Shown here: positions 383 to 48,256 of the stretch, piece by piece
Layout of the letters: the number at the start of each line of letters is the position of its first letter
Position numbering within the stretch: position 1 is the first letter of the stretch
Origin: an uncultured Clostridia bacterium
Lineage (GTDB): Bacteria; Bacillota; Clostridia; TANB77; CAG-508
NCBI GenBank assembly: GCA_934154805.1
Contig: CAKPGM010000001.1
Location: 6,177-70,176 of the forward strand
Length of the DNA stretch: 64,000 nucleotides
Reading direction: 5' to 3'
Notes under the pieces: generated by a model
The model's input: the letters and a program-made list of their open reading frames with translations, nothing else
Databases searched by the model: none
What the model was told of the DNA's origin: nothing
Position numbers and translations under genes: made by a program

Positions 383-562
383 TTATGGCATTATTATCCA
401 GCTAAATGATAATCTTCCTTTTACCACTTTATTAGCATCCGCTACTGATTTATAAGGTCCGTCATGTCCCCTAGCAGAGTCTAATATATAAAATTTATAT
501 CCTTGACTTTTGTATTGACTTGGTGCTGGAATAATTGCTAATATGTGTCCGAGATTCTCCTC
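383..562 (-). pseudogene. out-of-frame C-terminal remainder of the hydrolase at 495-3029
   Basis: The +1 frame, open from 562 to stop 383-385, reads EENLGHILAIIPAPSQYKSQGYKFYILDSARGHDGPYKSVADANKVVKGRLSFSWIIMP. The GH(I/V)xxI segment is where C39-like peptidases carry the catalytic His. That frame is closed by TAA TAG immediately upstream (568-563), so the shift lies at about 551-562. Confidence 0.55.
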
Positions 563-3029: not shown

Positions 3030-3039
3030 TTAAACTCTC

Positions 3040-3951
3040 CTAAATATTTACACTATATTCCATATTTGTATATGTTCCATCATTATTTTGTTTCTTTGCG
3101 TTCGAAAATACTATACACTTAAATTCTCTCTCATATGTATATGCATTAGTAAATTTTATAGCAACATTCATTGTTACACCTTTTCTAATATAAATTTGCT
3201 CTTTTGTCAAAGTATCATTTGTTACAGAATATTTTATATCATTATTATCCAGTAAATATAGTGTATTTGTATTTTTTAAGTCATCTAACAATACATCTGT
3301 ATCACCATTATTTGTTATCTGTAGATAATATCTTTCATATTTCATATGTGTGTCTTTTTTTGTAACCTTAAATACTATATTATCTTGTTTTGTTTCTTTA
3401 TTTACTTCCGAGCTTCCTATATAATTATTAATATTTAGTTTGTATTGATTATCTTCTGTTACAACAGAAATAAAATCTTGTATATTATTTTCTGCCGTTC
3501 CTCCTGTTAAAAGTACGTCTTCTTTTATATCCACTTTAAAAGTATTATTAATCCAATTTTGTATTGTATAAGATTTTTTCGACCCAAAATTTTTTTCGTA
3601 ATAGTTATTGTAAAAATTGTCATAGCTAGAGTACATTATGCTTTGACAGTCTTTGCTAAGCATATTATATGCTTCTTCTGATTTTCCTTCATTGCATAAT
3701 TTAATGAATTCTTCTATAACATCTTTATGCTTAGAAGTTAATTCTAAATCAGTTGTTGAATCTTCTGAAATGGCTGGGCGTAAATCAGAATCTATATGTC
3801 TGTTTTGTTCTATAATTTCATTTAAATTATCTTGATTAGATTCCTTTGCAAAGTAATTTAGCGTCTGAATAATTGCAATTATAAATATAATGGCTAATAT
3901 TACTAAAATTATTTGTTTTCGATTTTGATTTATTATTCTTCTTATATTCAT
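3040..3951 (-). CDS. TM-anchored transfer-cluster protein of unknown function (position and size compatible with a VirB8/TcpC-like component)
   Basis: 303-aa ORF with an N-terminal TM helix (QIILVILAIIFIIAIIQTL) followed by a soluble region. It sits between the VirB6-like gene and the hydrolase. The VirB8-like assignment rests on position and architecture only. Confidence 0.35.
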   Translation of the reverse strand: MNIRRIINQNRKQIILVILAIIFIIAIIQTLNYFAKESNQDNLNEIIEQNRHIDSDLRPAISEDSTTDLELTSKHKDVIEEFIKLCNEGKSEEAYNMLSKDCQSIMYSSYDNFYNNYYEKNFGSKKSYTIQNWINNTFKVDIKEDVLLTGGTAENNIQDFISVVTEDNQYKLNINNYIGSSEVNKETKQDNIVFKVTKKDTHMKYERYYLQITNNGDTDVLLDDLKNTNTLYLLDNNDIKYSVTNDTLTKEQIYIRKGVTMNVAIKFTNAYTYEREFKCIVFSNAKKQNNDGTYTNMEYSVNI

Positions 3952-4014
3952 ACTTTCCTCATTTCTTCTTATGCCAATTAAGCCAAAAGGAATACTCCTT
4001 TTGGTTTAATTGTT

Positions 4015-6708: not shown

Positions 6709-6727
6709 ACATACTCCTTTTTTTGCT

Positions 6728-8689
6728 CTATTTTCTTTGCTTCTCTGCTAGTTTATTAATATTGGTTTCAACAAATTCGAATTCCTTTGCAGTTGGTGTT
6801 ATTTGCAAGATAGCTGTGTCTTTTCCAACCTTTAATAAACCTTCTCCTTTGTTACATGTTACTAAGAAACCTGCTTCTCCTTCACTTAATTTAAATACTT
6901 CTTTTAGGTATTTTATTTCTGATTTATCTTGTGCTAATAATAATTTTGTATCTGAAGATGTAAGAACTGCTTGAACTTCTGGTTTCTCATAGAAGTCTTG
7001 GAATCTTTGCGAGATAATTGCTAAAGATACATTTCTTTTTCTAGCACGTCTTGCCATTGTGTTTAAGAAGTCAACTGCTTCTGGATATGGCAATAACATC
7101 CACGCCTCATCCACAAGAACCCTCTTCTTAGCAGCTTTTTTTCTATCTTCACTATTTTTCTTAACATATTTTTCCCAAATCCATGATAGTAGTATTTGTT
7201 GTGCAAGTGGTCTTGCAAATCTCTCTTCTAGTTGTGATATATCTAGATTAATGAATAATGTTCCGTCTAATAAATCAAATGTAGATTGTCCATCAAAATA
7301 TGCCATTTGTCCATCATATTTTCTTATGTACTGTTTCATAACCTTTAACAGATAGCTATAGTGAAATCTATAGTCTGGGTTTTGGTTTTCCTCTGATTTT
7401 CTCAATAGTCTTTCATACCAAGATCCTATTGTTGGCATTTGTTTCTTTCTTCTTCCAAGCATATTACCAGAGCTTTCCATAGTGCTTTCATATATACTTG
7501 AAGGATCACTATTAATACCTGCTGCAGCATATTCTTCTGATACTGCTTCTGCTATTATTTGTTTTGTTAACTCATTTACTTCTTGGCTTCTTGTACTACC
7601 TCTTGCCATTGTTAACAACGCCTGTGTAACGTCCTCCACTTTGTTTTCTACATTTAGTATCGTTTTTTCTCTTCCTGTTATTTCGTCTTTTACCATCTCT
7701 GTTTCTATATCAAAAACATTTATTATAGTGTTCGATGTAGGGCTTAATATAACATTTGTTCCGCCAAGACTTTCTGCAACTATTCTATACTCGCCCTCAG
7801 CATCTAGTGCTAAACTTTGTATTCCCATTAGAACTGCAGATCTTGATATTAGAGTCTTCATTGTAACAGATTTACCAGCACCAGACTTAGCAAATATAAC
7901 CATGTTATAGTTTGTTAATGAATTGTGGAAATTATCAAATAATATTGGTACTCCAGTTTGTTTATTGAACCCTAGTGGTATTCCTGTTATATGTCCAACC
8001 TCCGATGTTGTAAATGGAAATACTGTTCCCATTGATCTATGGTCAAAAGTGTGAGTTCTCTTTATTTTATCAGAATTGAATGGCAAGTTTGATTTAAACG
8101 CTTCTTCTTGCATTCCCCAGGCACTCTTTATTCCTACTAATGATTTAGACATTTCAGAAGACAATAGTTTTGTTAGTTTATCTAAATCTTCCAAATTGTA
8201 AGCAAACAACGTTGCTACGATTGAAGCTGAATATAATTTATTAAAGCCTGCAGCTATTTCATCTCTTAATTGCTCTGCTTCAAATCTTTTTTGTGCTAAT
8301 GTACTTTCTCTATTTATATTTCCCTTATCTGCTGCCACAATTCTTTCTGTTTCAAGTTCATTTATTGTTCTATTTAATTCATTTTGAGAACTAGATTCTG
8401 GAATAGGATTTATATATATAGATGTATTTATATCTCCAAACAAGTACATATCTCTAAATAATTCAGGGAATGTACACATTCTTGGAAGTGCTGATATAAA
8501 GAAACTTCTTGCATATCTTTTTGTATTTGAAATTATCTCCAAGTGATCGATATTGCTAGCGTCTATTCCTGATGGTGCAATTAGTTCTTTTATTGTTTTT
8601 TTATGTAATATCTTTGGATCTTCTCCAACAGAATAATCATTTCTGTTTGCTTGAAGGTTATCTTGTGTTTTTTTCTTCTTATTGAACAT
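6728..8689 (-). CDS. virB4: VirB4/TraE-family conjugal transfer ATPase
   Basis: 653 aa. Walker A is FAKSGAGKSVTMK and Walker B-like is RVLVDEAWMLL. The N-terminal LIAPSGIDASNIDHLEI... resembles Gram-positive VirB4 (TcpF/Orf16-type). Its start overlaps the end of the upstream gene by 11 nt. Confidence 0.85.
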   Translation of the reverse strand: MFNKKKKTQDNLQANRNDYSVGEDPKILHKKTIKELIAPSGIDASNIDHLEIISNTKRYARSFFISALPRMCTFPELFRDMYLFGDINTSIYINPIPESSSQNELNRTINELETERIVAADKGNINRESTLAQKRFEAEQLRDEIAAGFNKLYSASIVATLFAYNLEDLDKLTKLLSSEMSKSLVGIKSAWGMQEEAFKSNLPFNSDKIKRTHTFDHRSMGTVFPFTTSEVGHITGIPLGFNKQTGVPILFDNFHNSLTNYNMVIFAKSGAGKSVTMKTLISRSAVLMGIQSLALDAEGEYRIVAESLGGTNVILSPTSNTIINVFDIETEMVKDEITGREKTILNVENKVEDVTQALLTMARGSTRSQEVNELTKQIIAEAVSEEYAAAGINSDPSSIYESTMESSGNMLGRRKKQMPTIGSWYERLLRKSEENQNPDYRFHYSYLLKVMKQYIRKYDGQMAYFDGQSTFDLLDGTLFINLDISQLEERFARPLAQQILLSWIWEKYVKKNSEDRKKAAKKRVLVDEAWMLLPYPEAVDFLNTMARRARKRNVSLAIISQRFQDFYEKPEVQAVLTSSDTKLLLAQDKSEIKYLKEVFKLSEGEAGFLVTCNKGEGLLKVGKDTAILQITPTAKEFEFVETNINKLAEKQRK

Positions 8690-9863
8690 CTTCTTTTGTC
8701 TCCTTTCTTTGTCTCTTTCTCTCTTTTCTTATTCTTTCTTGTGCATCCTCTGCAACTTCGTCTCCTAGCATGCCCGCATTTTCCTGAATATACATTTCTG
8801 CTAGACTGCTTACAATATCATCGATATTTTGTTTTTTCTCTGTGTATTTCTTTGCTTTTTCAGATTGTACTTCCATAACTTTTTCGTTTGCTTTTTGTTT
8901 TGCTTTTATTTCTATCTCCTCATCAAGTAATTGCATCTTCTTATCCATGTAATCTTGTGCTGTTAAATATAGCTCATCAAATCTTGCTCTTCTTGCTCTA
9001 TCTATTCCATAATCTTCAGATTCATCTCTATTGTATGCTACATATAATAAATCAGCTAATTCTGTAGAGTTTAATATTCTTCCTACTACTCCTGATACGC
9101 TTAAAGCTCTAATTACTGATTTAGATTTTGTATACAACTCTGAAAAAGCTCTCTCTCTAATTTCGTCTTTATCTAAATATCCTTCATCTCCAGTTTCAGA
9201 ATAGTATGAAAGAACAGCGTAATATTTTTCATTTAGTATATTTTTATTTAGACTCATTCTTTCTGTATTATAGATTATATCTTTTCCATATTCATATAGA
9301 TTTTTTTGTTTGATATATTCATAGTATTCTTTTCTTACTAAATCTTCCGATATATTAGGATTCTTTGCTATTTGTTCATATCTCATTTTTTGTTTAGCAT
9401 ATTCTTTTTCTATCTCATCAACCTTTTCCCTATAATTTTGCAAACTACTTTCAAGGTTAATTTTTCTTGTTTGTATGTATAATTGTATTGGTTCTTTTAA
9501 AGTGTTTAAAAATTGAGAAAAACCTTCTTCTACACCAACTTTTTCCTCTTGTGACATCAAATCATAGTTTATTCCTTGGCATTCAATAACCATTATAAAC
9601 CTTTTTCCATTCTTTTGGATAATCATATTGTCTTCTATTTTATCAAACTCCATAAAGTTGAATACTGAATCTATAGTATATTGCTTAATTTTTGACTTTG
9701 AATTTTTTGCATTCTCATCTTCAGTTTGTTTTAGACTTTCCTCACCTTTTTCTTTCATTTTCATCTTTAGGTATATAACAGCTAAAACAATCAGTAATAT
9801 TACCATTATTCCCGCAATTATTAATAGTGCTGTTGTTAATAAACTTATATTATTATTTGTCAT
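8679..9863 (-). CDS. T4SS-associated membrane-anchored coiled-coil protein (function unknown)
   Basis: The ORF track gives 8679-9887. I prefer the ATG at 9863 (MTNNNISLL...) because GGGGAGGA lies 6 nt upstream. One TM helix (LLTTALLIIAGIMVILLIVLAVIYL) is followed by K/E-rich coiled-coil sequence. The gene overlaps both neighbours, which suggests translational coupling. Confidence 0.5.
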   Translation of the reverse strand: MTNNNISLLTTALLIIAGIMVILLIVLAVIYLKMKMKEKGEESLKQTEDENAKNSKSKIKQYTIDSVFNFMEFDKIEDNMIIQKNGKRFIMVIECQGINYDLMSQEEKVGVEEGFSQFLNTLKEPIQLYIQTRKINLESSLQNYREKVDEIEKEYAKQKMRYEQIAKNPNISEDLVRKEYYEYIKQKNLYEYGKDIIYNTERMSLNKNILNEKYYAVLSYYSETGDEGYLDKDEIRERAFSELYTKSKSVIRALSVSGVVGRILNSTELADLLYVAYNRDESEDYGIDRARRARFDELYLTAQDYMDKKMQLLDEEIEIKAKQKANEKVMEVQSEKAKKYTEKKQNIDDIVSSLAEMYIQENAGMLGDEVAEDAQERIRKERKRQRKETKEDVQ

Positions 9864-10200
9864 CTGTATCCTCCCCATCATATACATATATTTTGTTTTT
9901 CTTTTGCTTAAATTTTATTGCTCTTATAATTACATCATCCAGCGTTTGTCCTGCATTCACTTTTGCCCATTTAACCCCCGATAAATTTGGTACTTTGAAA
10001 GTTCCAATAACAAACCCGATTAATGCAAATATTATTAGTAAGATTATTCCAATTTGTGTCAATTTTATTAATTTGAATATAAAAAATAGTATCAACCCTA
10101 CAATCGACAATCCTGCTGTAAACATTAGTGATTTTCTGGTAAATATAAATAATATTCTACCCTCGCCTTTCACATTTCTAGGTAAATTATATGTTCCCAT
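9853..10200 (-). CDS. PrgI/TcpE-family (VirB3-like) small T4SS membrane protein
   Basis: 115 aa. The N-terminus YNLPRNVKGEGRILFIFTRKSLMF is followed by two TM helices. It lies immediately upstream of the VirB4 region, which is the usual VirB3 position. Confidence 0.65.
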   Translation of the reverse strand: MGTYNLPRNVKGEGRILFIFTRKSLMFTAGLSIVGLILFFIFKLIKLTQIGIILLIIFALIGFVIGTFKVPNLSGVKWAKVNAGQTLDDVIIRAIKFKQKKNKIYVYDGEDTDDK

Positions 10201-10270
10201 CTTTTGATTTTTCTCCTTATTATAATTTCTCTTTTATATTATAACATATAAATAAGAAAAAAGTAACAAA

Positions 10271-10303
10271 ATAACAAAAAAAAGTGCATTTTATGCACTT
10301 TTT
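10271..10303 (-). terminator. intrinsic terminator/attenuator between the pilin genes and the rest of the T4SS operon
   Basis: A perfect 9-bp stem (aaagtgcat 10281-10289 / atgcacttt 10293-10301) with a 3-nt loop. On the minus-strand RNA it is followed by a U-run (plus-strand A-run 10276-10280 and beyond). It sits 54 nt after the stop of the third pilin gene. Confidence 0.6.
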
Positions 10304-10356
10304 AATATTTTTGTAATATTTTTGTAATATCTATGTAACGTTATCAAAAACAAAAA

Positions 10357-10728
10357 CTATTGAACATTTCCATTAATTGTGTTGTATACAATTTTTACTA
10401 TTGTTGTACCTGCAAATAATAGTAATGCACCAACAATATATGGTATCATAGTTTTCTTGTATTCTGCTTTTTGTTCAACACTACCAGTCATATATTTTAT
10501 ACCTATAACTAATATTACAACAATTGCTATGATTATACCAGCAACTTGAATTATATTAACTATTTTTCCACCAATCTCAGTTAACTTAGTTGTATCTCCT
10601 GCTTGTGCATTTTCCACACCATTAATAACTCCATTTACATCTGGTGCTGCTAGTACAACACTTGCTATAGATGCAACCATCATTATTGTTAATAATATAG
10701 TAGATATAATTTTTACTGTTTTCTTCAT
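10357..10728 (-). CDS. VirB2/TrbC-like pilin-type protein, paralog 3
   Basis: 123 aa: signal peptide (…SVVLA/AP), hydrophobic helix, charged loop IKYMTGSVEQKAEYKKTMIPYIVG, and a second hydrophobic helix. The topology matches VirB2. It lies upstream of the VirB3/VirB4-like genes. Confidence 0.5.
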   Translation of the reverse strand: MKKTVKIISTILLTIMMVASIASVVLAAPDVNGVINGVENAQAGDTTKLTEIGGKIVNIIQVAGIIIAIVVILVIGIKYMTGSVEQKAEYKKTMIPYIVGALLLFAGTTIVKIVYNTINGNVQ

Positions 10729-10793
10729 ATATATTCCTCCTTATCTTATTATTTTTATATAAACCTCTTACTGTCGTAAGAATGTTAATAACT

Positions 10794-11171
10794 TTACCAA
10801 TTTACTCCTTGTAGTAGATCTACTACTAATTTCCATATTCCAAACGCTCCAAATACTATAATACATCCTACAACATATGGAATAAGTTTTTCTTTTATTT
10901 GTGCTTTAGCTTCTACTGAACCTGTTACAAATTGCATTCCTATTATTATTCCTGCAATTATTGCTACTATTATTCCTATAAAGAGTAGTATTCCAAAAAC
11001 AGTATTCGATGTTTCTTTCACTTTGTCTTCGCTAACTGCCTTGCTTGGATCTCCCTGATTAATGAAGTTATCTCCTTTTTTTATAATATCATCTGGTCCA
11101 ATTGCTTTTACCTGGTATCCTGTTAACATTATAGTAGCAAATAATAATATAAATACTATAATTTTTTTCAT
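10794..11171 (-). CDS. VirB2/TrbC-like pilin-type protein, paralog 2 (most divergent)
   Basis: 125 aa with the same architecture. The loop motif is MQFVTGSVEAKAQIKEKLIPYVVG. Confidence 0.5.
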   Translation of the reverse strand: MKKIIVFILLFATIMLTGYQVKAIGPDDIIKKGDNFINQGDPSKAVSEDKVKETSNTVFGILLFIGIIVAIIAGIIIGMQFVTGSVEAKAQIKEKLIPYVVGCIIVFGAFGIWKLVVDLLQGVNW

Positions 11172-11184
11172 ATCTTTTCCTCTT

Positions 11185-11601
11185 TTATGTTATATTTTTA
11201 GAAGCAGTTTCATATATAATTTTAACTATTGTTGTTGTTACTGTTATTAATCCTACTCCTACAACAAACGGTACCATTGTTTTCTTATATTCCGCTTTTT
11301 GTTCAACACTACCTGTCATATATTTAATTCCTAGTAATCCTATAGAGATTAGAGCTATTATTATTCCAATCATTTGAATTACATTTATAATTGTTCCAAC
11401 TATTCCTAATGTTTTAGTATTGTTTTCAAGGTTGTCTTTTTTATAGTCATCAGTGTTTATTATCGTCTTTCCACTGCTTTTTATGCCGTCCCCTCCGTCA
11501 TCCGGCCTTGCATATACAACATTGCTAAATGTAGTTATTGACATTGTTATGGCAATCAAAATTATAATTATTTTGTTTATTATTCTAATATTTTTCACCA
11601 T
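11185..11601 (-). CDS. VirB2/TrbC-like pilin-type protein, paralog 1
   Basis: 138 aa with the same architecture. The loop motif IKYMTGSVEQKAEYKKTMVPFVVG is nearly identical to paralog 3. Confidence 0.5.
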   Translation of the reverse strand: MVKNIRIINKIIIILIAITMSITTFSNVVYARPDDGGDGIKSSGKTIINTDDYKKDNLENNTKTLGIVGTIINVIQMIGIIIALISIGLLGIKYMTGSVEQKAEYKKTMVPFVVGVGLITVTTTIVKIIYETASKNIT

Positions 11602-42305: not shown

Positions 42306-42906
42306 TTATTTTTCTTCTTTTACGGATTCAATCTCTTCGTCTGTCGCTCCAGAGTATTTTTTTATTAACTCTATTTCCAAATTATCTTTCAACATTCTTT
42401 TAATAATTTCTGTTTTTGTTTCTTTTACTCCGTAATTCTTTTCCTATTTCTGTTCCTTCTCTAATTCCAGTATTGTATAGTGCTTTTTCATCCATTATGG
42501 CTTTTTGTCTTAGTTCTGCTAGTCTCTCCATTTTCTCATCTTCGCTCATTTCTCTTACTGTTATTACTGCTTTTTTTACATCTTCATTCTTTTCCATAAT
42601 TTCTTTAACCTCCTCAGAGTTCGGATCTTCTAAAAACATTACCCATTGGTTCTTCTTATTATTCTTATCATTTTGGTATGCTTCTCTTACTCTTTTTAAG
42701 TTAATTATACGTATTTCAAACACGTCTGTCAACACTTTCTCTGGCTTTTCTTTTTCTCTTACGTTCCATATTGTTTCCATTCTTTTTAACTCTTTCGTTA
42801 CATCTATTTCAAAATCTGTTATTGCTATTATTACTACTTTTCTTGCTTTATTATATGTATCTCCTCTCTGTATTTGCTTGGCATATATTCTTAAAATTCG
42901 ACATGT
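42306..42906 (-). pseudogene. decayed Rpn-family (YhgA-like, PD-(D/E)XK) recombination-promoting nuclease / putative transposase gene
   Basis: The frame of track ORF 42400-42780 stays open upstream without an ATG (…RILRIYAKQIQRGDTYNKARKVVIIAITDFEIDVTKELKR-METIW…) until a stop at 42907-42909, so the nuclease N-terminus is missing. After ...EIGKE, the +1 frame continues with family-typical sequence (KNYGVKETKTEIIKRMLKDNLEIELIKKYSGATDEEIESVKEEK) to a stop at 42306-42308. This implies a 1-nt indel in the A-run near 42445. Confidence 0.55.
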
Positions 42907-43029: not shown

Positions 43030-43383
43030 TTAATCTTCTTTCATCTTACTTAGTATTGTTGACATACTATTGCAAAACAAGATCATATCATCTATATTTT
43101 TATTGTCACATTTTCTCATTATATTTTCTAGTTCTTTATTGATTTCTTTTGACTTTAATTCTTTGTTAGTCATTTTATCAAAAAATATGATCCTATCTAA
43201 TGAGAGTTGCAATACCGTACAAATTTTTAAAACTGTTTCTACACTAGGTTTTGTTTTTCCTCTTTCTATATTGCTATAAAAGTTATTAGAAATATCTGCC
43301 TGCTCTGCAACCTCTGTTTGCTTCATATTTAGTTCTTCTCTCTTTTGTTTAAACATTTTTCTTAATTCTTCATAATAGTTCAT
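43030..43383 (-). CDS. XRE-family helix-turn-helix transcriptional regulator
   Basis: 117 aa. HTH_3 motif: LNMKQTEVAEQADISNNFYSNIERGKTKPSVETVLKICTVLQLSLD. Confidence 0.8.
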   Translation of the reverse strand: MNYYEELRKMFKQKREELNMKQTEVAEQADISNNFYSNIERGKTKPSVETVLKICTVLQLSLDRIIFFDKMTNKELKSKEINKELENIMRKCDNKNIDDMILFCNSMSTILSKMKED

Positions 43384-43526
43384 AGTAAATAAGCCTCTCT
43401 AAATATATTCCTTATAATGATTTTATAATTTTATTGATTCGAAATAAATATTCTACAAGTCTATTGCATTATATCTATAAGTATGTTATTATAAATAAAA
43501 AAATATACTTATGGAGAATTTATATT

Positions 43527-43790
43527 ATGAATATAGATACTTTAAATAGTTTTATAGAAAACAGAATTCAAGACAATTATTCTATCTTACTTGATAATTT
43601 AAAATACATATCTCTTAATGATGTGTACACAAATAAATACCAATCCTTTATATCTAAAATTTCAGATGATGATAAAACATTGTTCAATGAACTTATAGAT
43701 ATTAAGAGCAGTCTTTTTACAGAGGAAATTTATCTATCTTATATTGTGGGACTTCACGATGGATTCGAATTTAATAAAGGAATTAAATAA
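43527..43790 (+). CDS. small hypothetical protein (87 aa)
   Basis: The ATG at 43527 follows GGAGA. The track ORF begins earlier, at 43434. Its end, ...YLSYIVGLHDGFEFNKG, loosely resembles the end of ORF 63048-63338. Confidence 0.45.
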   Translation: MNIDTLNSFIENRIQDNYSILLDNLKYISLNDVYTNKYQSFISKISDDDKTLFNELIDIKSSLFTEEIYLSYIVGLHDGFEFNKGIK

Positions 43791-43808
43791 CAAAAGAAAG
43801 GAAATGTT

Positions 43809-44210
43809 ATGAGCAAATTATATGATACATATAAGAATTTAAAGCTATGCGAAAACAATTATATTTATCTGTTCAAATCTGGTATTTTTTATATTTTACT
43901 AGCTGATGATGCTAAGCGTGTTTCTCTTTCTTTAGGACTAAAACTTACTAAGTTTAATGATGAGGTTCTAAAATGTGGCTTTCCTATTTCTGCAAAAGAT
44001 AAATATTTTCAGTTACTTAAAAATCATAATTTTGATTTTAAAATAATAGACAATAATACATCTTATAATATATGTGAATATACAGTAAAAAATGGATTTC
44101 AGGAAATGTTAGATACAATTTTAAAGGTGGATACTAATAATTTATCAATTAAAGAAGCTTATGAATTTATAGACAAAATAAAAAATATGGCTAACGCTTT
44201 ATCGCATTAG
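43809..44210 (+). CDS. small MutS-domain-I-like protein (MSL-like), copy B
   Basis: 133 aa. YDTYKNLKLCENNYIYLFKSGIFYILLADDAKRVSLSLGLKLTKFNDEVLKCGFPISAKDKYFQLLKNHNFDFKIID aligns by eye with the E. coli MutS N-terminus ([46 protein letters not shown]...[28 protein letters not shown]). Its 3' end overlaps the RT gene's 3' end by 4 nt, in convergent orientation. Confidence 0.6.
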   Translation: MSKLYDTYKNLKLCENNYIYLFKSGIFYILLADDAKRVSLSLGLKLTKFNDEVLKCGFPISAKDKYFQLLKNHNFDFKIIDNNTSYNICEYTVKNGFQEMLDTILKVDTNNLSIKEAYEFIDKIKNMANALSH

Positions 44211-45151
44211 CTCTTTTTCAATAGGTTTTTATAACAAGTTATGCTGTTAGTTAGATTAATTAAATCTATTTTTTTGTTTTCATATAGATATTTCTTGTAT
44301 TTTATTTTTCTTTTCATACTTCTATATTTTGCATATCCTCCCCTCTTATTGCGTCCTAAAAATATAAAATTATTCGTGTTTTTATATATTCTGCTTTTTC
44401 TATTTAGAACTAACTTTTCTTTATTTAAAAATATTTTAATCTTTTCAAAACACTCTTTTAGATATTCTTTTGAAGGATGAAACAACAAAAAGTCGTCCTG
44501 ATATCTTACATAATATTTTATTTTTAAATCTTCTTTTATATAATGATCTAAATCATTTAAGTAAAACACTGCTAAAACTTGACTAGTCATATTGCCTATT
44601 CCCAGTCCATTTTCTTCACTATCAATTATCTTAAACACAATATTGAGCGCATCTTTATCCTTTATTCTTTTGACTATTTTCTCTTTTAATCTCGTATGAT
44701 CTATACTCGCAAAGAATTTACTAATATCGCATTTTAATATATAATAGTCTTTGTACTTTATATTACACTTTCTAATAAAGTTTCTCTCAAGTCTCAATCC
44801 CTCTTTTGTTCCTCGATCTTTAATACTTGCTACATTCTCTGGTATTAAGCAAGGATTTAAAGTCGGATAAAGTATCTGTCTACTTACTAAATGATTTATA
44901 ATTTTATCTTGTAAATTTTGACTCACTATCCTTCGCTCTTTTGGTTCATATATTTTAAAAACTGTATATGGTCCAACTTCATAGTTTTTATTTATCATAA
45001 TATCGTATATTCTGCTTATATAAACACACTTATATTCTTTATATTTTCTTACTTTTCTTTTGTTTTTTGTATTTTTACATACTTCATCAAAAGCCTGCAT
45101 TATATTTTCCATCTTACAAACATATTGATATAAATTATTTTTTCTTTTCAT
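44207..45151 (-). CDS. DGR-type reverse transcriptase
   Basis: 314 aa: EPKERRIVS (motif 2), GLGIGNMTSQVLAVFYLN (the I/LGxxxSQ motif diagnostic of DGR RTs), and VRYQDDFLLF (the catalytic YxDD box). It has no maturase or endonuclease extension. It lies 208 nt downstream of the TR. Confidence 0.9.
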   Translation of the reverse strand: MKRKNNLYQYVCKMENIMQAFDEVCKNTKNKRKVRKYKEYKCVYISRIYDIMINKNYEVGPYTVFKIYEPKERRIVSQNLQDKIINHLVSRQILYPTLNPCLIPENVASIKDRGTKEGLRLERNFIRKCNIKYKDYYILKCDISKFFASIDHTRLKEKIVKRIKDKDALNIVFKIIDSEENGLGIGNMTSQVLAVFYLNDLDHYIKEDLKIKYYVRYQDDFLLFHPSKEYLKECFEKIKIFLNKEKLVLNRKSRIYKNTNNFIFLGRNKRGGYAKYRSMKRKIKYKKYLYENKKIDLINLTNSITCYKNLLKKS

Positions 45152-45358
45152 TAGTTTACTCCTTTATAATAATAAAAAGAAGTAGTTATAAAACTACTTC
45201 AAAAACAGTTCTAAAATATAATCCCTTTCGCAAATGCTACTAACAATCATATTTATCTATTTTTATTTATAACATATATATGTTAAAGGACTACGGTTTG
45301 TTTCTATATTATCTCTTATATGATATATTAGCATATAACCACAGTGTATAGAAGCTAT

Positions 45359-45502
45359 GGGGCGGACACCAAAGCCGTTAGCATTCCAGTTACCGTTCGA
45401 GTTGAACATATTGTTGCCAGCGTTGACATTGCCGTTATTAACATCACCAGGACCGAAGTTAGCATTGTCAGAGTTAGCATTAACAGCGGGCGAAGCTAGC
45501 CA
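45359..45502 (-). ncRNA. DGR template repeat (TR)
   Basis: 144 nt that align without gaps to 46556-46699. TR differs from VR at 23 positions, and 21 of those are adenines in the TR sense strand (T on the plus strand). It lies between avd and the RT. Confidence 0.9.
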
Positions 45503-45523
45503 CATCAACCAAGCCCTATAAAA

Positions 45524-45871
45524 CTAATTTATATTAATAGTTTTTTTCCATCCAGTTGCATATTTTATTATATCATCTAATTTTTGCCCAAATTTTACAT
45601 ATCTTTTGCTATTTATGATCTCTTTGTCATAGCATAGATTTAGTAAAAAATCTATGACTTTAACTTTTGCAATTATGTTTTCTATTAGATCTTCTCTTTT
45701 ATCTTGAGAAGTAAGATTCGCTTTATATGCAAGTTCTAACAACTCATAGCTTTCTTCTTTTAATTTGCTTTTTATTTCTATATCTTTTTTAGGAAAATTA
45801 TTTAGATGTACATCCATATAAACTATTAATTCTCTAATGTAATTTATTACTTTAAATTTTTCTTCTTTCAT
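45524..45871 (-). CDS. avd: DGR accessory variability determinant (Avd; four-helix-bundle, 23S-rRNA-IVS protein family)
   Basis: 115 aa, basic and helical (…INYIRELIVYMDVHLNNFPKKDIEIKSKL…AKVKVIDFLLNLCYDKEII…KFGQKLDDIIKYATGWKK). It lies immediately upstream of the TR and overlaps the preceding gene by 20 nt. Confidence 0.75.
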   Translation of the reverse strand: MKEEKFKVINYIRELIVYMDVHLNNFPKKDIEIKSKLKEESYELLELAYKANLTSQDKREDLIENIIAKVKVIDFLLNLCYDKEIINSKRYVKFGQKLDDIIKYATGWKKTININ

Positions 45872-46301
45872 TTATTAAACTCTCTATTTGGCTTATTAAT
45901 TCCTTATCTTTGTTATAAGTATTTAAATAATTTGTTATTTTCTCTATTCTTATTTTGATTGCATTTTCTGCCTTTCCCAACTCATAATATTTTTCATAAT
46001 TATTCAAATTCTTAAAGTTACTGTTTTCTCGTTCTTCATAGTTATTTCTTCTGTCTAGCACTATGTAATTTATTTTTTTACTTTCTAGTTGAGCTATTAC
46101 TTTATTATATGCCGATTTTGGAAAAGAACATGAATAGATATTGTTTTCTAAAATTTTTATTTTGTATTTTTCTAGATAACTAATTATAAAAGTATCTTTT
46201 CCATAGCAATAATAAAATGAACCTATTTCTATGAGTACTATATAATTTTTGCATATTTGTTTTACATTTTGTACCATATTTATTATTTTTTCTATCTTCA
46301 T
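45852..46301 (-). CDS. small MutS-domain-I-like protein (MSL-like), copy A
   Basis: 149 aa. KQICKNYIVLIEIGSFYYCYGKDTFIISYLEKYKIKILENNIYSCSFPKSAYNKVIAQLESKKINYIVLD follows the same pattern as copy B and MutS domain I. It sits between the DGR target gene and avd. Confidence 0.55.
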   Translation of the reverse strand: MKIEKIINMVQNVKQICKNYIVLIEIGSFYYCYGKDTFIISYLEKYKIKILENNIYSCSFPKSAYNKVIAQLESKKINYIVLDRRNNYEERENSNFKNLNNYEKYYELGKAENAIKIRIEKITNYLNTYNKDKELISQIESLINERRKI

Positions 46302-46393
46302 TTGTTCCTCTTTTAAAGCGAGCCCCCAGAAGTCACGAGGCCTTCTTGGGGCTTTTGCTGTTTATGTTTTGCATTCAAACAAGTTATTACTTA

Positions 46394-47746
46394 TTAGCTG
46401 GCTCCTCCACCTGAATTCCCGTAATTGCCTGCCTCTCCGTTTGTTGCATTTCCATTTGCTACAGCATCATTATTTGAGTATGCTGACCAATCGTCTTCTT
46501 TTCCATCTATTACGTGCAAATCTTCAATAGTGATATTAGAATTTAGATAAACTAGGGGGCGGACACCAAAGCCGTCAGCAAACCAGCCACCGCCCGAGAT
46601 GAACATATCGACGCCAGCGAAGACACCGCCGTTACCCACATCACCAGGACCGAAGATAGCATCGTCAGAGTAAGCATAAACACCGGGCGAAGCTAGCCAG
46701 TAAGACTTTGCATAATTTGCATCACTTGTTGTTCCACTAAACAATATTGTTTTTAATGCATCATCAATTGTTAGGTTACCCCATTGATAATAATATGCTG
46801 TTGCTGGTTCTGTTTTTGTACCTTCTGTTGCATTTGTTTTATTATTTATATAACTCTCTGGGGTATAATCACTTGATTTATATGTATATTGATTTCCTAA
46901 TACTCCCCATTTGTCTATATTAGTGTTTGAGTCTGTATTTGCATATACCTTTTGGTTAGTATAATCTACTGTCACTCCTATTAATCTATTGATTTCTTCT
47001 GCTGTCAAACTTTGTGCTGTTCCTAAACTTGTGCTATATATCCCACTTATATTTTTTAATATTGTTTTGCAATTTACATATGAATATGCTCCTTTTAAAA
47101 CCAGATATGGTGACTTTTCCCAATCTTCTGCTGTAGTATCTGTTTTCATTTCCTTTTTTATTGGACTTTGTGAGATCAACATTAGTTTTTCACCTGTTTT
47201 ATCTAGTCCTAACACTTGCCAATATGTGTTTTTTGTTGCTGTATATTTTTGGTCTGCCCATCCATTTTCATTTGTTACTGTTGTATAAGTCTTACTTTCA
47301 TCCACATAATCATTATAATTTAAATAATCCCCGACTTTTATATTTCCATCTTTAAACGCTTGTACTAAAGTTTTAGCATCTGATGGGAATCTTACTGTTT
47401 CTTTCCCTATTACTAGCTCTTTTGTGTCTTTTATGGTATTAATATCATCTTCACTTATTAGCCCTCTATCTTTTAATCTTGTTAAAAAGTCATCCATACT
47501 TTCGTGTGACCCTGCACCATTATCTGATGCAAATTTTTCAGCTTCCCATAGGCTTATTTCATCTCTTATTGAGCCAGCTCTACTTGCGTTTCTTGCATCT
47601 TTTGATTTCTGGATTATACCATTTTGATCAACTAACAAATTGATACTTACACCCGCCAGTATCAAAAGTACTACAATTGTTACTACTAGTGCTATTAATG
47701 TTATAGCATTTTGGTTCTTTAGCTTAATGTTTTTACTTTGTTTCAT
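46394..47746 (-). CDS. DGR variable (target) protein: pilin-like N-terminal hydrophobic segment and C-terminal variable ligand-binding (C-type-lectin-fold-like) region
   Basis: I chose the start at 47746 (MKQSKNIKLKNQNAITLIALVVTIVVLLILAGVSI…) after GGAGG. The track ORF starts 15 codons earlier. The C-terminal sequence YWLASPGVYAYSDDAIFGPGDVGNGGVFAGVDMFISGGGWFADGFGVRP is encoded by the VR. Confidence 0.85.
   Translation of the reverse strand: MKQSKNIKLKNQNAITLIALVVTIVVLLILAGVSINLLVDQNGIIQKSKDARNASRAGSIRDEISLWEAEKFASDNGAGSHESMDDFLTRLKDRGLISEDDINTIKDTKELVIGKETVRFPSDAKTLVQAFKDGNIKVGDYLNYNDYVDESKTYTTVTNENGWADQKYTATKNTYWQVLGLDKTGEKLMLISQSPIKKEMKTDTTAEDWEKSPYLVLKGAYSYVNCKTILKNISGIYSTSLGTAQSLTAEEINRLIGVTVDYTNQKVYANTDSNTNIDKWGVLGNQYTYKSSDYTPESYINNKTNATEGTKTEPATAYYYQWGNLTIDDALKTILFSGTTSDANYAKSYWLASPGVYAYSDDAIFGPGDVGNGGVFAGVDMFISGGGWFADGFGVRPLVYLNSNITIEDLHVIDGKEDDWSAYSNNDAVANGNATNGEAGNYGNSGGGAS
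46556..46699 (-). repeat. DGR variable repeat (VR) inside the target gene
   Basis: It is the counterpart of TR 45359-45502 at a constant offset of 1197 nt. 14 of the 15 Asn (AAY) codons in the TR are replaced in the VR by Y, D, I, G, F or V codons. Confidence 0.9.
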
Positions 47747-47844
47747 TTGTTTACCTCCATATATTCTTAAAAATTTGGTTATTATATTCATATCTTATAT
47801 CAACAATTTCCTTTTGTAAATACTTTTCGAGATTTTTTCTTATT

Positions 47845-47867
47845 TTTATGCGTTTTATTCGCATAAA
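47845..47867. promoter_or_regulatory. inverted repeat (candidate operator) in the divergent target/XRE control region
   Basis: tttatgcg (47845-47852) and cgcataaa (47860-47867) form perfect 8-bp arms with a 7-nt spacer. The repeat lies in the 165-bp region between the divergent DGR target gene and the XRE gene. Confidence 0.3.
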
Positions 47868-47911
47868 AAATCATTTATTGTTGAATAATATACTGATATA
47901 TTTATTAGTAG

Positions 47912-48256
47912 GTGATTATTTTGGATTCAGATAAGATAAAAATAGGCAAAGCTTTAAAGAAATATAGAATGATAAAAGGTTATACTCAAGAGGATGTAGC
48001 TGATATTACAGGTCTTGCTCCTAGATATATTAGTCAAATTGAAAGAGGTTTCTCTTCTGGTAGTATTTCTACGTTGATCAAATTATGTGATGCTTATGGG
48101 ATTACTCCTAATCACGTCTTATACACTATGACTAACAATCCCGATGATTGTTCTAGTTACAATTCTATTTCTGGTTATAATGAGCTAAATAAAAAGAATC
48201 GTTTTGTCGTAGATTCTTTAATAGATATATTAATAAAGCAACAAGGCAAAAAATAA
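47912..48256 (+). CDS. XRE-family helix-turn-helix transcriptional regulator
   Basis: 114 aa. HTH_3 motif: GYTQEDVADITGLAPRYISQIERGFSSGSISTLIKLCDAYGITPNHVL. The start is non-ATG: either the GTG at 47912 or the TTG at 47921, after AGGTGA. Confidence 0.75.
   Translation: MIILDSDKIKIGKALKKYRMIKGYTQEDVADITGLAPRYISQIERGFSSGSISTLIKLCDAYGITPNHVLYTMTNNPDDCSSYNSISGYNELNKKNRFVVDSLIDILIKQQGKK

Follow-up and report, generated by a model that had tools for sequence, protein, structure and literature searches.

To our knowledge, no natural system other than diversity-generating retroelements (DGRs) carries out targeted hypermutation of proteins in prokaryotes, and their known density is highest in the human gut. 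The prototype, that of Bordetella phage BPP-1 (mtd-avd-TR-brt), places the target gene with its variable repeat (VR) before avd, the template repeat (TR) and the reverse transcriptase (RT) gene. A second group, Architecture D of Wu et al. 2018, comprises the DGRs that contain a MutS-like (MSL) gene, the Legionella DGR included (PMC5758913). Msl is also present in the Bacteroides DGRs Bfr, Bth and Bun; DGRs of this genus diversify the tip adhesins of type V pili, and host MutS limits their retrohoming, which provides a rationale for MSL (bioRxiv 10.1101/2024.11.15.621889). The cassette of Treponema denticola uses HRDC, and its target TvpA is a lipoprotein whose C-type lectin domain is of the FGE-sulfatase type (PMC5758913).

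The stretch of DNA analysed here (hereafter the window; 64,000 nucleotides from an uncultured Clostridia bacterium) very probably carries a chromosomal DGR of the MSL/Avd type that was active in the recent past of the population. The mechanism is already well known and the locus adds no new one; its use is as a specimen of a DGR that is unusually clean and informative. Its genes and repeats are as follows.

47912-48256, plus strand: XRE-type HTH regulator, divergent from the target gene (Pfam HTH_3, E 1.2e-13); left edge of a nearly invariant island
46394-47746, minus strand: target (variable protein) gene, 450 aa, with the VR internal and 53 codons from VR end to stop
46556-46699, minus strand: VR, 48 codons, aa 350-397 of the 450-aa target
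45852-46301, minus strand: MSL1, 149 aa, stand-alone MutS domain I, the mismatch-binding domain (Pfam MutS_I 30.4 bits, cut-off 20.6)
45524-45871, minus strand: Avd accessory protein, 115 aa (Pfam bAvd 41.1 bits, cut-off 40)
45359-45502, minus strand: TR, 144 nt with 34 sense adenines and 15 AAY codons, non-coding, between avd and RT
44207-45151, minus strand: DGR reverse transcriptase of 314 aa carrying the motifs IGNMTSQ and YQDD (Pfam RVT_1 55.6 bits, above the cut-off)
43809-44210, plus strand: MSL2, 133 aa, stand-alone MutS domain I (Pfam MutS_I 35.5 bits, cut-off 20.6)
43434-43790, plus strand: DUF6809-like small ORF upstream of MSL2 (Pfam DUF6809 24.2 bits, below the cut-off of 27)

The minus strand thus reads target with VR, MSL1, Avd, TR, some 180-200 nt of structured RNA ending in a terminator, and RT, on which the second MSL gene converges; all cassette genes are intact. 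This is the BPP-1 order of target/VR, avd, TR and RT, although the window DGR is chromosomal and has two extra MutS-domain-I genes. The RT also has its closest solved relative in common with that system: the best structure match is 8ub7 with its sibling entries, a 328-aa RT that we take, from entry family and length, to be the Bordetella phage bRT (E 1.8e-28, the next RT type following at 2.5e-8). In the alignment IGNMTSQ stands opposite IGSLTSQ and YQDD opposite YMDD, the catalytic YQDD being kept. The I/LGxxxSQ motif is specific to DGR RTs, and by its sequence the RT next to the template would belong to the DGR clade. NCBIfam DivGenRetAVD also matches the Avd protein (E 2.3e-11), although its 43.9 bits fall short of the cut-off of 80. 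Like the MSL-containing DGRs, and in keeping with the definition of Architecture D, the cassette combines a small MutS-like accessory gene with avd and yields no Pfam match to HRDC. The two MSL proteins are 26% identical. MSL1 adjoins Avd in most related loci. In related loci MSL2 is the gene immediately 5' of the RT and shares its strand; it aligns with residues 19-101 of Thermus MutS and keeps the Phe of the Phe-x-Glu motif, with the Glu replaced. Two paralogous MSL genes, one by avd and one by the RT, characterize the family of the window, and the 16 MSL DGRs described in PMC5758913 may include such arrangements. The HTH regulator occupies the same place in L001, L002, L013, L030, L031 and L042, and the DUF6809-like ORF was detected in L001 and L002 only; neither shows any difference among strains.

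An earlier note on this DNA had claimed a repeat pair whose mismatches concentrate on the adenines of one copy, and a recount returned the same figures. Over 144 nt (45359-45502 versus 46556-46699, constant offset 1197) there are 23 mismatches and no gaps, and 21 of them fall on plus-strand T, that is sense-strand A, of the 45359-45502 copy (hypergeometric P of 21 or more on A, 2.1e-14). The changes at TR adenines are 12 A>G, 9 A>T and no A>C. As in BPP-1, these A-specific differences fall on AAY codons: in the frame of the VR, 14 of the 15 in the TR are changed, to Y, Y, D, I, G, G, F, V, D, I, G, G, F and D, the very list given before. A first- or second-position adenine occurs in the TR at 18 of the 48 VR codons. 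The two exceptions to the adenine rule are also exactly those noted earlier: 45440 (VR 46637; sense T>G, GTT>GTG, silent) and 45486 (VR 46683; sense C>G, GCT>GGT, Ala>Gly). The latter is private to the window, since all other cluster members listed have Ala at that codon. Either the transfer was imperfectly clean or a point mutation came later. The G+C content is 49% in the TR and 58% in the VR, against 29.6% in the whole window. The next best ungapped plus-strand match to the repeat in the whole window has 62 of 144 identities compared with 121 for the VR, and blastn on both strands found two copies and no third in the window. An 80/81-aa ORF spanning the TR is a ghost of the target reading frame. 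The complete cassette, together with the behaviour of relatives and strains, bears out the direction proposed earlier, with 45359-45502 as template and 46556-46699 as the variable copy.

Comparison of the VR across related genomes and metagenomes, which the earlier note had suggested, gave the pattern predicted for a DGR. The near relative L001 has an RT 96% identical to that of the window, with PcrA-to-M23 synteny kept, and its TR differs from that of the window at 19 positions. Each of the two VRs tracks its own TR at non-adenine positions, while adenines stay in both TRs and the VRs differ there. The note had held that a TR co-varying with its VR would speak against a DGR, yet this non-adenine co-variation supports TR-to-VR transfer: co-variation counts against a DGR only at adenine positions, and there the TRs keep A and the VRs differ. 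More widely, a TR/VR pair with A bias is present at 50 of the 80 RT-related loci, and among 63 target homologues the 18 adenine codons have an entropy of 2.75 bits, compared with 0.30 for the remaining 30 codons of the VR and 0.37 outside it. In six members of the 90% cluster all 402 non-VR residues are the same as in the window protein, and 13-17 of the 18 adenine codons differ.

Contigs from other gut metagenomes carry the same island, of 4.9 kb from the HTH regulator to DUF6809, with 2-3 differences outside the VR where flanking genes differ by about 2-4%. The target genes of four such contigs show no difference from the window in 1209 nt outside the VR and 23-28 differences in the 144-nt VR (16-19%), and their TRs differ from the window TR at 1-2 positions. 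In three sister strains the mismatches between their own TR and VR are all at A (17/17, 25/25 and 26/26), A>C included. VR turnover on a near-identical island, together with non-A changes of the TR mirrored in the VR, supports what would be unidirectional TR-to-VR transfer with adenine mutagenesis, and these population data suggest that it took place recently. As a natural experiment in unrelated gut metagenomes, such turnover offers a clean gauge of DGR activity against background divergence.

The same data bear on the possibility that the cassette once diversified the VR and is now inactive, the TR/VR mismatches being old. The two non-A differences in the window VR would suit such a fossil, as would the terminator that separates the TR RNA from the RT and, in the related contig L081, an RT called at 319 aa with no Pfam match on record. 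We nevertheless find a fossil very unlikely: the VR differs at 23-28 positions among strains despite an otherwise identical target and nearly identical island, each such strain has its own mismatches entirely at A, the genes are all intact with YQDD kept in the RT, and compensatory changes maintain the RNA structure described below. The points that weigh against an active DGR at the level of the cassette are the terminator ahead of the RT, which bears on how the RT is expressed, the two non-A VR differences and the lack of an inverted repeat after the IMH.

Hardly credible, too, is a DGR carried by a prophage that, like BPP-1, would switch host range by varying a phage receptor-binding protein. 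Most described human-gut DGRs are viral (PMC8144416), and the weak Foldseek matches of the target model are to phage DUF6273 proteins (E about 1-2). However, the locus is flanked by housekeeping genes (MreB/C, PBP2, MinC, RadC, MecA, M23 peptidase, PcrA, CotF, RF-1 and SpoIIE), is syntenic in two related genomes and has no phage structural genes nearby; 2.9 million viral contigs yielded an RT relative of 41% identity at best, whereas those in cellular genome bins range over 53-96%, and the N-terminus of the target is a membrane/pilin-type helix, unlike tail-fibre architecture. To segmental duplication of the 3' part of the gene followed by drift, or to pilin-style gene conversion from a silent cassette, we attach practically no weight: the target is pilin-like, classical pilin variation uses silent donor copies and the donor copy lies close to the gene, but drift would spread mismatches over all bases where 21 of 23 affect a single base of one copy (P = 2e-14), conversion would reproduce the donor where the VR departs from a single donor precisely at adenines, to any of the other three bases, and the window has one donor-like copy only, flanked by RT and Avd.

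A chromosomal DGR remains the preferred reading, and the 3' end of the repeat has the appearance expected of one. Two features are involved.

46536-46574, minus strand: IMH-like VR end, made up of 19 GC-rich nt free of A (46556-46574) and then some 20 nt (46536-46555) whose differences from the TR flank are fixed
46322-46352, minus strand: GC-rich hairpin GCCCCAAGAAGGC...CTTCTGGGGGC, after the stop codon of the target and ahead of MSL1

The last 19 sense nt of the repeat (45359-45377, CGGCTTTGGTGTCCGCCCC) contain no A, are GC-rich and are the same in both copies, as previously described. Past this point similarity declines without vanishing: 11 of the next 20 nt still match in the window, and across the family the flanks follow a fixed pattern (TR GTAGCTTCTATAAACTGTGG versus VR GTAGTTTCTCTAAAATCTGA, 15/20 matching). 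This relation of the flanks is IMH/IMH*-like, its function being a predicted one, and the A-free GC-rich end is best read as a putative IMH in the VR and IMH* in the TR, serving as transfer boundary and homing site. BPP-1 likewise has a GC-rich A-free IMH ending the VR and a non-identical IMH* after the TR. Of the cDNA priming and homing role proposed earlier for this end, the homing or boundary part stands; priming, to judge from the Bordetella phage element, is more likely a matter for the structured RNA just downstream of the TR. Unlike in BPP-1, the VR is internal, 53 codons before the stop, so the IMH-like end lies in coding sequence (GFGVRP-LVYLNSN), and V395, R396 and P397 are invariant in the target family. 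A further difference from BPP-1 is that the GC-rich inverted repeat directly after the IMH is missing: folding the 116 nt downstream from the VR end gave z = -0.25. Efficient homing of the Bordetella phage and Legionella elements requires that inverted repeat, which is not universal and occurs in 34% of DGRs (PMC5758913). About 200 nt further along, past the stop codon, lies the conserved GC-rich hairpin, whose form CCAAGAAGGCC..GGxCTTCTTGG recurs in 10 of 12 loci examined, with its sequence conserved across the family. It may correspond, in a shifted position, to the inverted repeat of DGRs, or may act as an attenuator; a terminator-like match at 46322-46352 is on the opposite strand.

Immediately 3' of the TR is a structured RNA, composed as follows.

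45179-45358, minus strand: structured spacer RNA, directly 3' of the TR, with IMH*-like AUAGCUUCUAUA
45347-45353 with 45302-45308, minus strand: helix 1, 7 bp, no compensatory change
45316-45338, minus strand: helix 2, hairpin
45270-45285, minus strand: helix 3, hairpin, then an A-rich run
45202-45265, minus strand: helices 4-6
45179-45200, minus strand: intrinsic terminator between the TR RNA and the RT gene
45507-45517 with 45287-45298, minus strand: long-range RNA duplex, its 5' strand (AGGGCUUGGUU) just upstream of the TR

RNAalifold on the spacer returned 44 pairs, 23 of them with compensatory changes and 95.7% of cells paired; slid controls did not exceed 57% paired cells or 9 compensatory pairs. 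The long-range duplex forms 11 bp in 20 of 20 loci, and cognate strands pair at a mean of -13.2 kcal/mol versus -9.0 for non-cognate ones, with none of 5000 permutations as good. We consider it a candidate counterpart of the 'cPRT Stop' duplex, an element defined in the Bordetella phage RNP (bioRxiv 10.1101/2023.10.23.563531). In the RNA 3' of the TR, elements with covariation support match those defined by cryo-EM in the Bordetella phage DGR, and likely counterparts can be named for the template:primer duplex, for the stem-loop just downstream of the TR and for the upstream/downstream 'Stop' duplex with its adjacent stem-loop and adenosines. Such counterparts of three cryo-EM elements would be independent comparative evidence that the priming/stop architecture is conserved in distant Bacillota. 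The pairing of helix 1, which lacks compensatory changes, is not covariation-supported. A covariance model of the spacer (R1) gave one match per locus, beside the TR wherever a TR was detected and irrespective of gene order, in 47 of 81 sources. The sequence of the spacer RNA is unrelated to that of BPP-1; R1 found no match among 80 phage DGR loci, and Rfam models matched nothing in the window.

These elements suggest the following cycle. A single transcript would run through the 3' end of avd, the 144-nt TR and some 180 nt of structured spacer to the terminator at 45179-45200, and would be bound by RT (44207-45151) and Avd. The spacer would fold back onto the sequence just past the TR, likely through the invariant 7-bp helix UUCUAUA/UAUAGAA, which would set an adenosine near 45302 as primer opposite a template base near 45354. 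The TR would be copied to cDNA faithfully at G, C and U and with a random base opposite A, and the cDNA would replace the homologous 144 nt of the target (46556-46699), the A-free GC-rich IMH being the 3' limit of transfer. Some 18 codons, mostly AAY, would be rewritten in the ectodomain of a pilin-like surface protein, presumably on its ligand-binding face, while scaffold codons and the TR would stay constant through the cycle. The probable task of both MutS-domain-I proteins is to keep host mismatch repair away from the heavily mismatched cDNA:VR heteroduplex, and the two-MSL family is a good place to probe the idea that MSL counteracts this repair during retrohoming.

The target itself has at its N-terminus a hydrophobic helix like that of type IV pilins, then an ectodomain of some 330 aa and finally a short, disordered tail rich in Gly and Asn. 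Family profiles searched against the PDB matched type IV pilin N-termini only (best E 0.008), and Pfam N_methyl reaches 15.4 bits on the target, below the cut-off of 21.2. The N-terminal motif of the family is K-G-ITLIALV, with Ala in place of the conserved Glu5, and the window protein has N-A where the family has K-G. The class III signal of type IV pilins and pseudopilins has Glu at +5 and Gly at -1, and their first residue is N-methylated. With N_methyl below cut-off and both K-G and Glu5 replaced, yet with PDB matches to pilins only, the protein is pilin-like without being classifiable as a pilin. A Pfam scan of the larger ORFs of the window, roughly 30 in number, found neither a prepilin peptidase nor pilus assembly genes. 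The AF2 model of aa 121-450 has a pLDDT of 95.3; Foldseek searches of the model against PDB and BFVD gave no match at E <= 0.001, and the protein has no Pfam domain. The VR region of one relative matches the C-terminal end of DUF6273 at 23.8 bits, barely over the cut-off of 23.5. Unlike in BPP-1, the target is not Mtd-like and has no detected C-type lectin match; DGR targets typically display their variable residues on a C-type lectin (or Ig) fold, and that the former is unconfirmed by Foldseek or Pfam is, with the lack of compensatory change in helix 1, a further point against the active-DGR reading.

In its setting the target resembles those of the Bacteroides type V pilus DGRs: the host is a gut commensal, the element is chromosomal, the target is of surface-filament type and its variable part is distal. 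The phylum is another one, however, the N-terminus is type-IV-like and not type V, incorporation into a pilus is putative, and pilus assembly genes do not adjoin the target. Like the TvpA DGR, the window DGR is chromosomal and acts on a cell-surface protein of a host-associated bacterium (PMC5758913), but the anchor of its target is pilin-like, neither FGE-sulfatase nor DUF1566 matches that target, and its cassette has MSL. Modular Gram-positive type IV pilins, such as Streptococcus sanguinis PilB (PMC8179133), share a pilin-type helix followed by a large grafted globular module, possibly ligand-binding; the target differs in lacking Glu5, in its subthreshold N_methyl and in having no prepilin peptidase or assembly genes in the window, and the likeness is a resemblance only. 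A bolder proposal, which we consider rather doubtful, is that the family forms a new Glu5-less, tip-type modular class of type IV pilins or pseudopilins with a ligand-binding module of a fold new among DGR targets, that the paired MSLs are a dedicated anti-mismatch-repair device and that the 4.9-kb island recombines between strains as a unit. The family comprises 342 clusters at 50% identity from uncultured gut Clostridia and Bacilli, and is a widespread, unannotated group of pilin-like surface proteins whose fold is confidently predicted and unmatched. A 465-aa version of the window protein, starting at an upstream ATG, is absent from the public collection in which the 450-aa product is found exactly.

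The two copies of the repeat, the template region (TR, 45359-45502, minus strand) and the variable region (VR, 46556-46699, minus strand), give a gap-free 144-nt alignment, with the offset fixed at 1197 nt throughout. Our recount gives 23 mismatches, 21 of them at a plus-strand T of the TR, that is, at a sense (minus-strand) adenine (A>G in 12 cases, A>T in 9 and A>C in none). Given that 34 of the 144 TR nt are adenines, at least 21 of 23 mismatches would fall on A by chance with a probability of 2.1e-14. The two non-adenine differences lie at 45440 (silent) and 45486 (Ala>Gly). Read in the VR frame, the TR contains 15 AAY codons, 14 of which are changed in the VR, and the 3'-most 19 sense nt of the repeat are A-free and the same in both copies. 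The earlier note had proposed the pair from the sequence, and every number given in it, down to the residues replacing the 14 AAY codons, is borne out by the recount. No further repeat-like sequence was found within the 64-kb window.

The minus-strand surroundings of the pair form a complete diversity-generating retroelement (DGR) cassette, in which the order of transcription is as follows, with the flanking features given last.

Features of the DGR cassette
46394-47746, minus strand: target gene, 450 aa, containing the VR (first in order)
46322-46352, minus strand: GC-rich hairpin, after the target stop and before the MSL1 start (second)
45852-46301, minus strand: MSL1, MutS-domain-I protein, 149 aa (third; MutS_I above the Pfam cut-off)
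45524-45871, minus strand: Avd (fourth; bAvd above the Pfam cut-off)
45359-45502, minus strand: TR (fifth)
between TR and RT, minus strand: non-coding stretch of about 200 nt (sixth)
44207-45151, minus strand: reverse transcriptase (RT), 314 aa (seventh; RVT_1 above the Pfam cut-off)
43809-44210, plus strand: MSL2, second MutS-domain-I protein, convergent to the RT (MutS_I above the Pfam cut-off)
preceding MSL2: DUF6809-like ORF
at either end of the cassette: XRE-type regulators

Among solved structures the RT is closest to a 328-aa reverse transcriptase (entries 8ub7-8ube; E 1.8e-28, the next RT type reaching 2.5e-8), with its IGNMTSQ and YQDD motifs aligned opposite IGSLTSQ and YMDD. We take this protein to be the Bordetella phage bRT. 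The locus combines an adenine-specific TR/VR relation, a complete gene set and a terminator-like hairpin, and shows the DGR-defining features among those examined; its architecture is of the MSL/Avd type. An inverted repeat after the GC-rich, A-free VR end (IMH) is optional in DGRs generally, and no hairpin or inverted repeat was found directly 3' of the IMH here. Of the 12 related loci examined, 10 have the GC-rich hairpin (46322-46352 here) with its sequence (CCAAGAAGGCC...GGxCTTCTTGG) conserved; it could be an attenuator, a site for protein binding or a displaced form of the inverted repeat known from DGRs. The TR is also spanned by an 81-aa ORF (45263-45508, minus strand; TTG start), a reading of the TR in the target frame (MMWLASPAVNANSDNANFGPG...). 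This ORF appears in public gene calls as an 80-aa protein (e.g., 5742-5984 of the sister-strain contig L081); very probably it is not a real gene.

Across 63 target homologues (74-93% identical), the 18 codons for which the TR has an adenine in first or second position show a column entropy of 2.75 bits; the remaining 30 VR codons show 0.30 bits, and columns outside the VR 0.37. Twenty-three members make up the target's own 90% cluster, and six of them have all 402 non-VR residues in common with the window's protein while differing at 13-17 of the 18 adenine codons. At the DNA level, four contigs of such members, from Hadza and other gut metagenomes, match the window at all 1209 nt of the non-VR target sequence, and differ from it at 23-28 positions of the 144-nt VR and at 1-2 of the TR. 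The sister strains' own TR/VR mismatches fall at adenines in 17 of 17, 25 of 25 and 26 of 26 cases, A>C included; pooled over four VRs, 140 template adenines comprise 51 kept as A, 51 changed to G, 26 to T and 12 to C. Outside the VR, a 4.9-kb stretch (43434-48256, from the divergent HTH gene to DUF6809) carries only 2-3 differences in L081, L083 and L084, sister-strain contigs from unrelated gut metagenomes. Its flanks differ more, by about 2% in PcrA and about 4% in the HTH gene on the opposite side (43030-43383). Such uniformity of the island between its flanks suggests a recent sweep or the recombinational exchange of the island as one unit. The VR turns over rapidly on this otherwise near-invariant island. 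A 126-aa ORF at 42400-42780, whose match to PDDEXK_2 (PD-(D/E)XK transposase-like) is confined to the C-terminal end of the profile (positions 137-226 of 229), had no match in L001, the closest related locus, which is syntenic; it is a probable insertion remnant adjoining the island.

The TR itself is polymorphic among the sister strains (L081-L085) at two sites, T18A (window 45485) and G82A (window 45421), each of which gains or loses a mutable adenine. Position 18 is T in the window and A in L001 and the four sister-strain contigs examined. The TR of L084 has an extra A (GCT>ACT) opposite a G in its own VR, consistent with mutagenesis at the new site. The Ala>Gly change at 45486 is private to the window, since Ala stands at this codon in all the other cluster members listed. 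The same 90% cluster includes a 52-aa fragment annotated as a Lactiplantibacillus plantarum hypothetical protein (WP_211760043.1), which probably derives from a contaminating contig in that assembly.

A scan for RT relatives, with one genome per species, returned 327 stretches, of which the best 80 were taken further; almost all of these belong to gut Clostridia/Bacilli genome bins, including Clostridium sp. CAG:508, and 50 of the 80 contain an adenine-biased repeat pair. Two layouts occur among the related loci, one co-directional as in the window, the other with MSL2-RT convergent to target-MSL1-Avd-TR. In L001, the closest locus, the RT is 96% identical to that of the window and the PcrA-to-M23 synteny is kept, and the L001 TR differs from the window TR at 19 positions. 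At non-adenine positions, the VR base in each locus is that of its own TR (e.g., CGCCCGCT versus CCTCTGCA), whereas at adenine positions the A is kept in both TRs and the VRs diverge. As read from the sequences, this pattern is the one that one-way TR-to-VR copying leaves, and it supports such transfer at non-adenine positions between lineages. The earlier note would have taken a TR co-varying with the VR in related genomes as a refutation; that argument is reversed here. It left adenine and non-adenine positions unseparated, and the non-adenine co-variation between the window and L001 is what TR-to-VR copying leaves behind. L001 (CAVFFR010000005.1) is labelled "Bacteroidaceae bacterium", yet it is syntenic with the window, which is low in GC and Clostridia-like, and protein identities between the two are 78-99% (97% for PcrA). 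The label of the bin is probably wrong.

By analogy with the Bordetella phage element, the RT-Avd complex would bind the TR-spacer RNA, cDNA synthesis would be primed in cis from a spacer adenosine, adenines would be misread during copying, and the VR would be replaced by the cDNA with the GC-rich IMH as 3' limit (PMC6182149; bioRxiv 10.1101/2023.10.23.563531; PMC5758913). This mechanism is already known, and existing catalogues list thousands of gut DGRs (PMC8144416). The locus is of note for its strain-level natural experiment, its RNA architecture, its twin MSL genes and an unannotated pilin-like target whose fold is unmatched.

Sequence conservation across the family extends over the approximately 180 nt 3' of the TR, both where an RT follows and where it does not. 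RNAalifold predicts 44 pairs in this spacer RNA, 23 of them with compensatory changes, and the paired fraction of cells is 95.7%. In slid controls this fraction never exceeds 57%, and no more than 9 pairs are compensatory. Covariation thus supports the predicted helices other than helix 1, with 8 pairs covarying in the 10-bp helix 2, while helix 1 (UUCUAUA with UAUAGAA) is invariant and shows no compensatory change. An intrinsic terminator (45179-45200) ends the element just 5' of the RT ribosome-binding site. Furthermore, the 11 nt lying just 5' of the TR (AGGGCUUGGUU, 45507-45517) can form a long-range duplex with AACCG(U)AGUCCU (45287-45298) in 20 of 20 loci; cognate strands have a mean energy of -13.2 kcal/mol versus -9.0 for non-cognate ones, none of 5000 permutations was as good, and the first pair shows clear A-U to U-A swaps. 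A pseudoknot between ACUGUGG (after helix 1) and CCGUAGU, 85.7% paired and without significant covariation (63-91 of 500 shuffles equal it), was given up for the long-range duplex, which draws on the same 3' strand and passes the permutation test. By eye, no consistent complementarity was found between the GC-rich TR end and the conserved GAAAGGGA loop. A covariance model built from 16 sequences had matches in 47 of the 81 sources searched, with a single copy per locus. At every locus with a detected TR this copy adjoins it, even where the TR comes after the RT. The model had no match in 80 phage DGR loci, and no Rfam family was found in the whole window at gathering thresholds.

The layout of this RNA matches that seen by cryo-EM in the Bordetella phage RNP, where a 7-bp duplex of the TR-region end with the spacer places the priming adenosine, a stem-loop just 3' of the TR binds Avd, and a "Stop" duplex pairs TR-upstream with TR-downstream sequence, followed by a stem-loop and adenosines (bioRxiv 10.1101/2023.10.23.563531). 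On this comparison, helix 1 is a candidate for the priming duplex, with a candidate primer near 45302 and template base near 45354, helix 2 may be the Avd-binding stem-loop, and the long-range duplex, followed by helix 3 and an A-rich run, would correspond to the "Stop" element.

The target family shares an N-terminal motif, K-G-ITLIALVvTIvVLLILAG, and when its profiles were run against PDB sequences, the matches were confined to the N-termini of type IV pilins (geopilin, PilE1, MshA and PilA5, with a best E of 0.008). The target is thus pilin-like, though not classifiable as a pilin, because Pfam N_methyl is below threshold, the family lacks Glu5, and the window copy has N-A in place of K-G. 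A published study of TANB77 pilins deals with Tad-type pilins and mentions neither the target protein nor DGRs (PMC11680825). The family comprises 342 clusters at 50% identity (E <= 1e-3). A structure model from the 63 close homologues alone reached a pLDDT of 43.8; with a diverse alignment from a representative search, residues 121-450 were modelled at pLDDT 95.3 and pTM 0.93. Foldseek found no match to this model in PDB or BFVD with E <= 0.001, and phage DUF6273 proteins were the sole recurrent weak matches. No Pfam domain matches the target family, and Pfam scans of the VR domain alone, the TR-encoded version and 86 family members found no lectin-type domain; the VR region of one relative matches the end of DUF6273, barely over the cut-off. 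In the model, the VR would encode a run of beta strands (residues 229-275). A further 53 codons, mostly modelled with confidence, lie 3' of the VR, which is therefore internal, and the IMH is under coding constraint: it encodes GFGVRP, with V, R and P invariant. Internal VRs are reported to be rare among lectin-type targets (PMC5758913).

Two MSL paralogues per cassette are conserved in this DGR family. MSL2 aligns with residues 19-101 of Thermus MutS, and in both proteins the Phe of the mismatch-contacting Phe-x-Glu is kept while the Glu is replaced (GIFYI in MSL2, GSFYY in MSL1, GDFYE in MutS). MSL accessory genes are already known from 16 DGRs, which are grouped as Architecture D (PMC5758913). 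Msl is also present in three Bacteroides DGRs, and in Bacteroides deletion of the host mutS raises retrohoming 5- to 10-fold (bioRxiv 10.1101/2024.11.15.621889). The MSL proteins, as stand-alone mismatch-binding domains, may shield the cDNA:VR heteroduplex from mismatch repair.

The wider window encodes MreB/C, PBP2, MinC, RadC, MecA, an M23 peptidase, PcrA, CotF, RF-1 and SpoIIE, and is ordinary chromosome rather than prophage. The best viral relative of the RT is 41% identical, and the DGR locus is cellular. The window contains no tRNA genes and so gives no attachment-site clue. A promoter scan found 35 candidates against 36.6 expected from shuffles, and hence we claim no promoter. On the plus strand, GC skew (about -0.2; -0.22) and AT skew (about -0.2) hold in every 8-kb block, and long ORFs are nearly all on the minus strand. 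The window as a whole appears to belong to a single replichore; given the GC skew throughout, the minus strand is probably leading, which would make the target co-directional with replication. The co-directional orientation was reported to be favoured in a reconstituted BPP-1 element (PMC12875486), and the window target would share it.

Elsewhere in the window, a conjugation- or type-IV-secretion-like cluster (495-11601) includes a VirB4/TraG-type P-loop ATPase (6728-8689) and large proteins (844 and 897 aa), of which one carries a C39-like peptidase domain. At its end (10357-11601) lie three small proteins, paralogues of one another, each with two hydrophobic segments. They have a KYMTGSVEQKAEYKK motif in common, and we take them to resemble TrbC/VirB2-type pilins.
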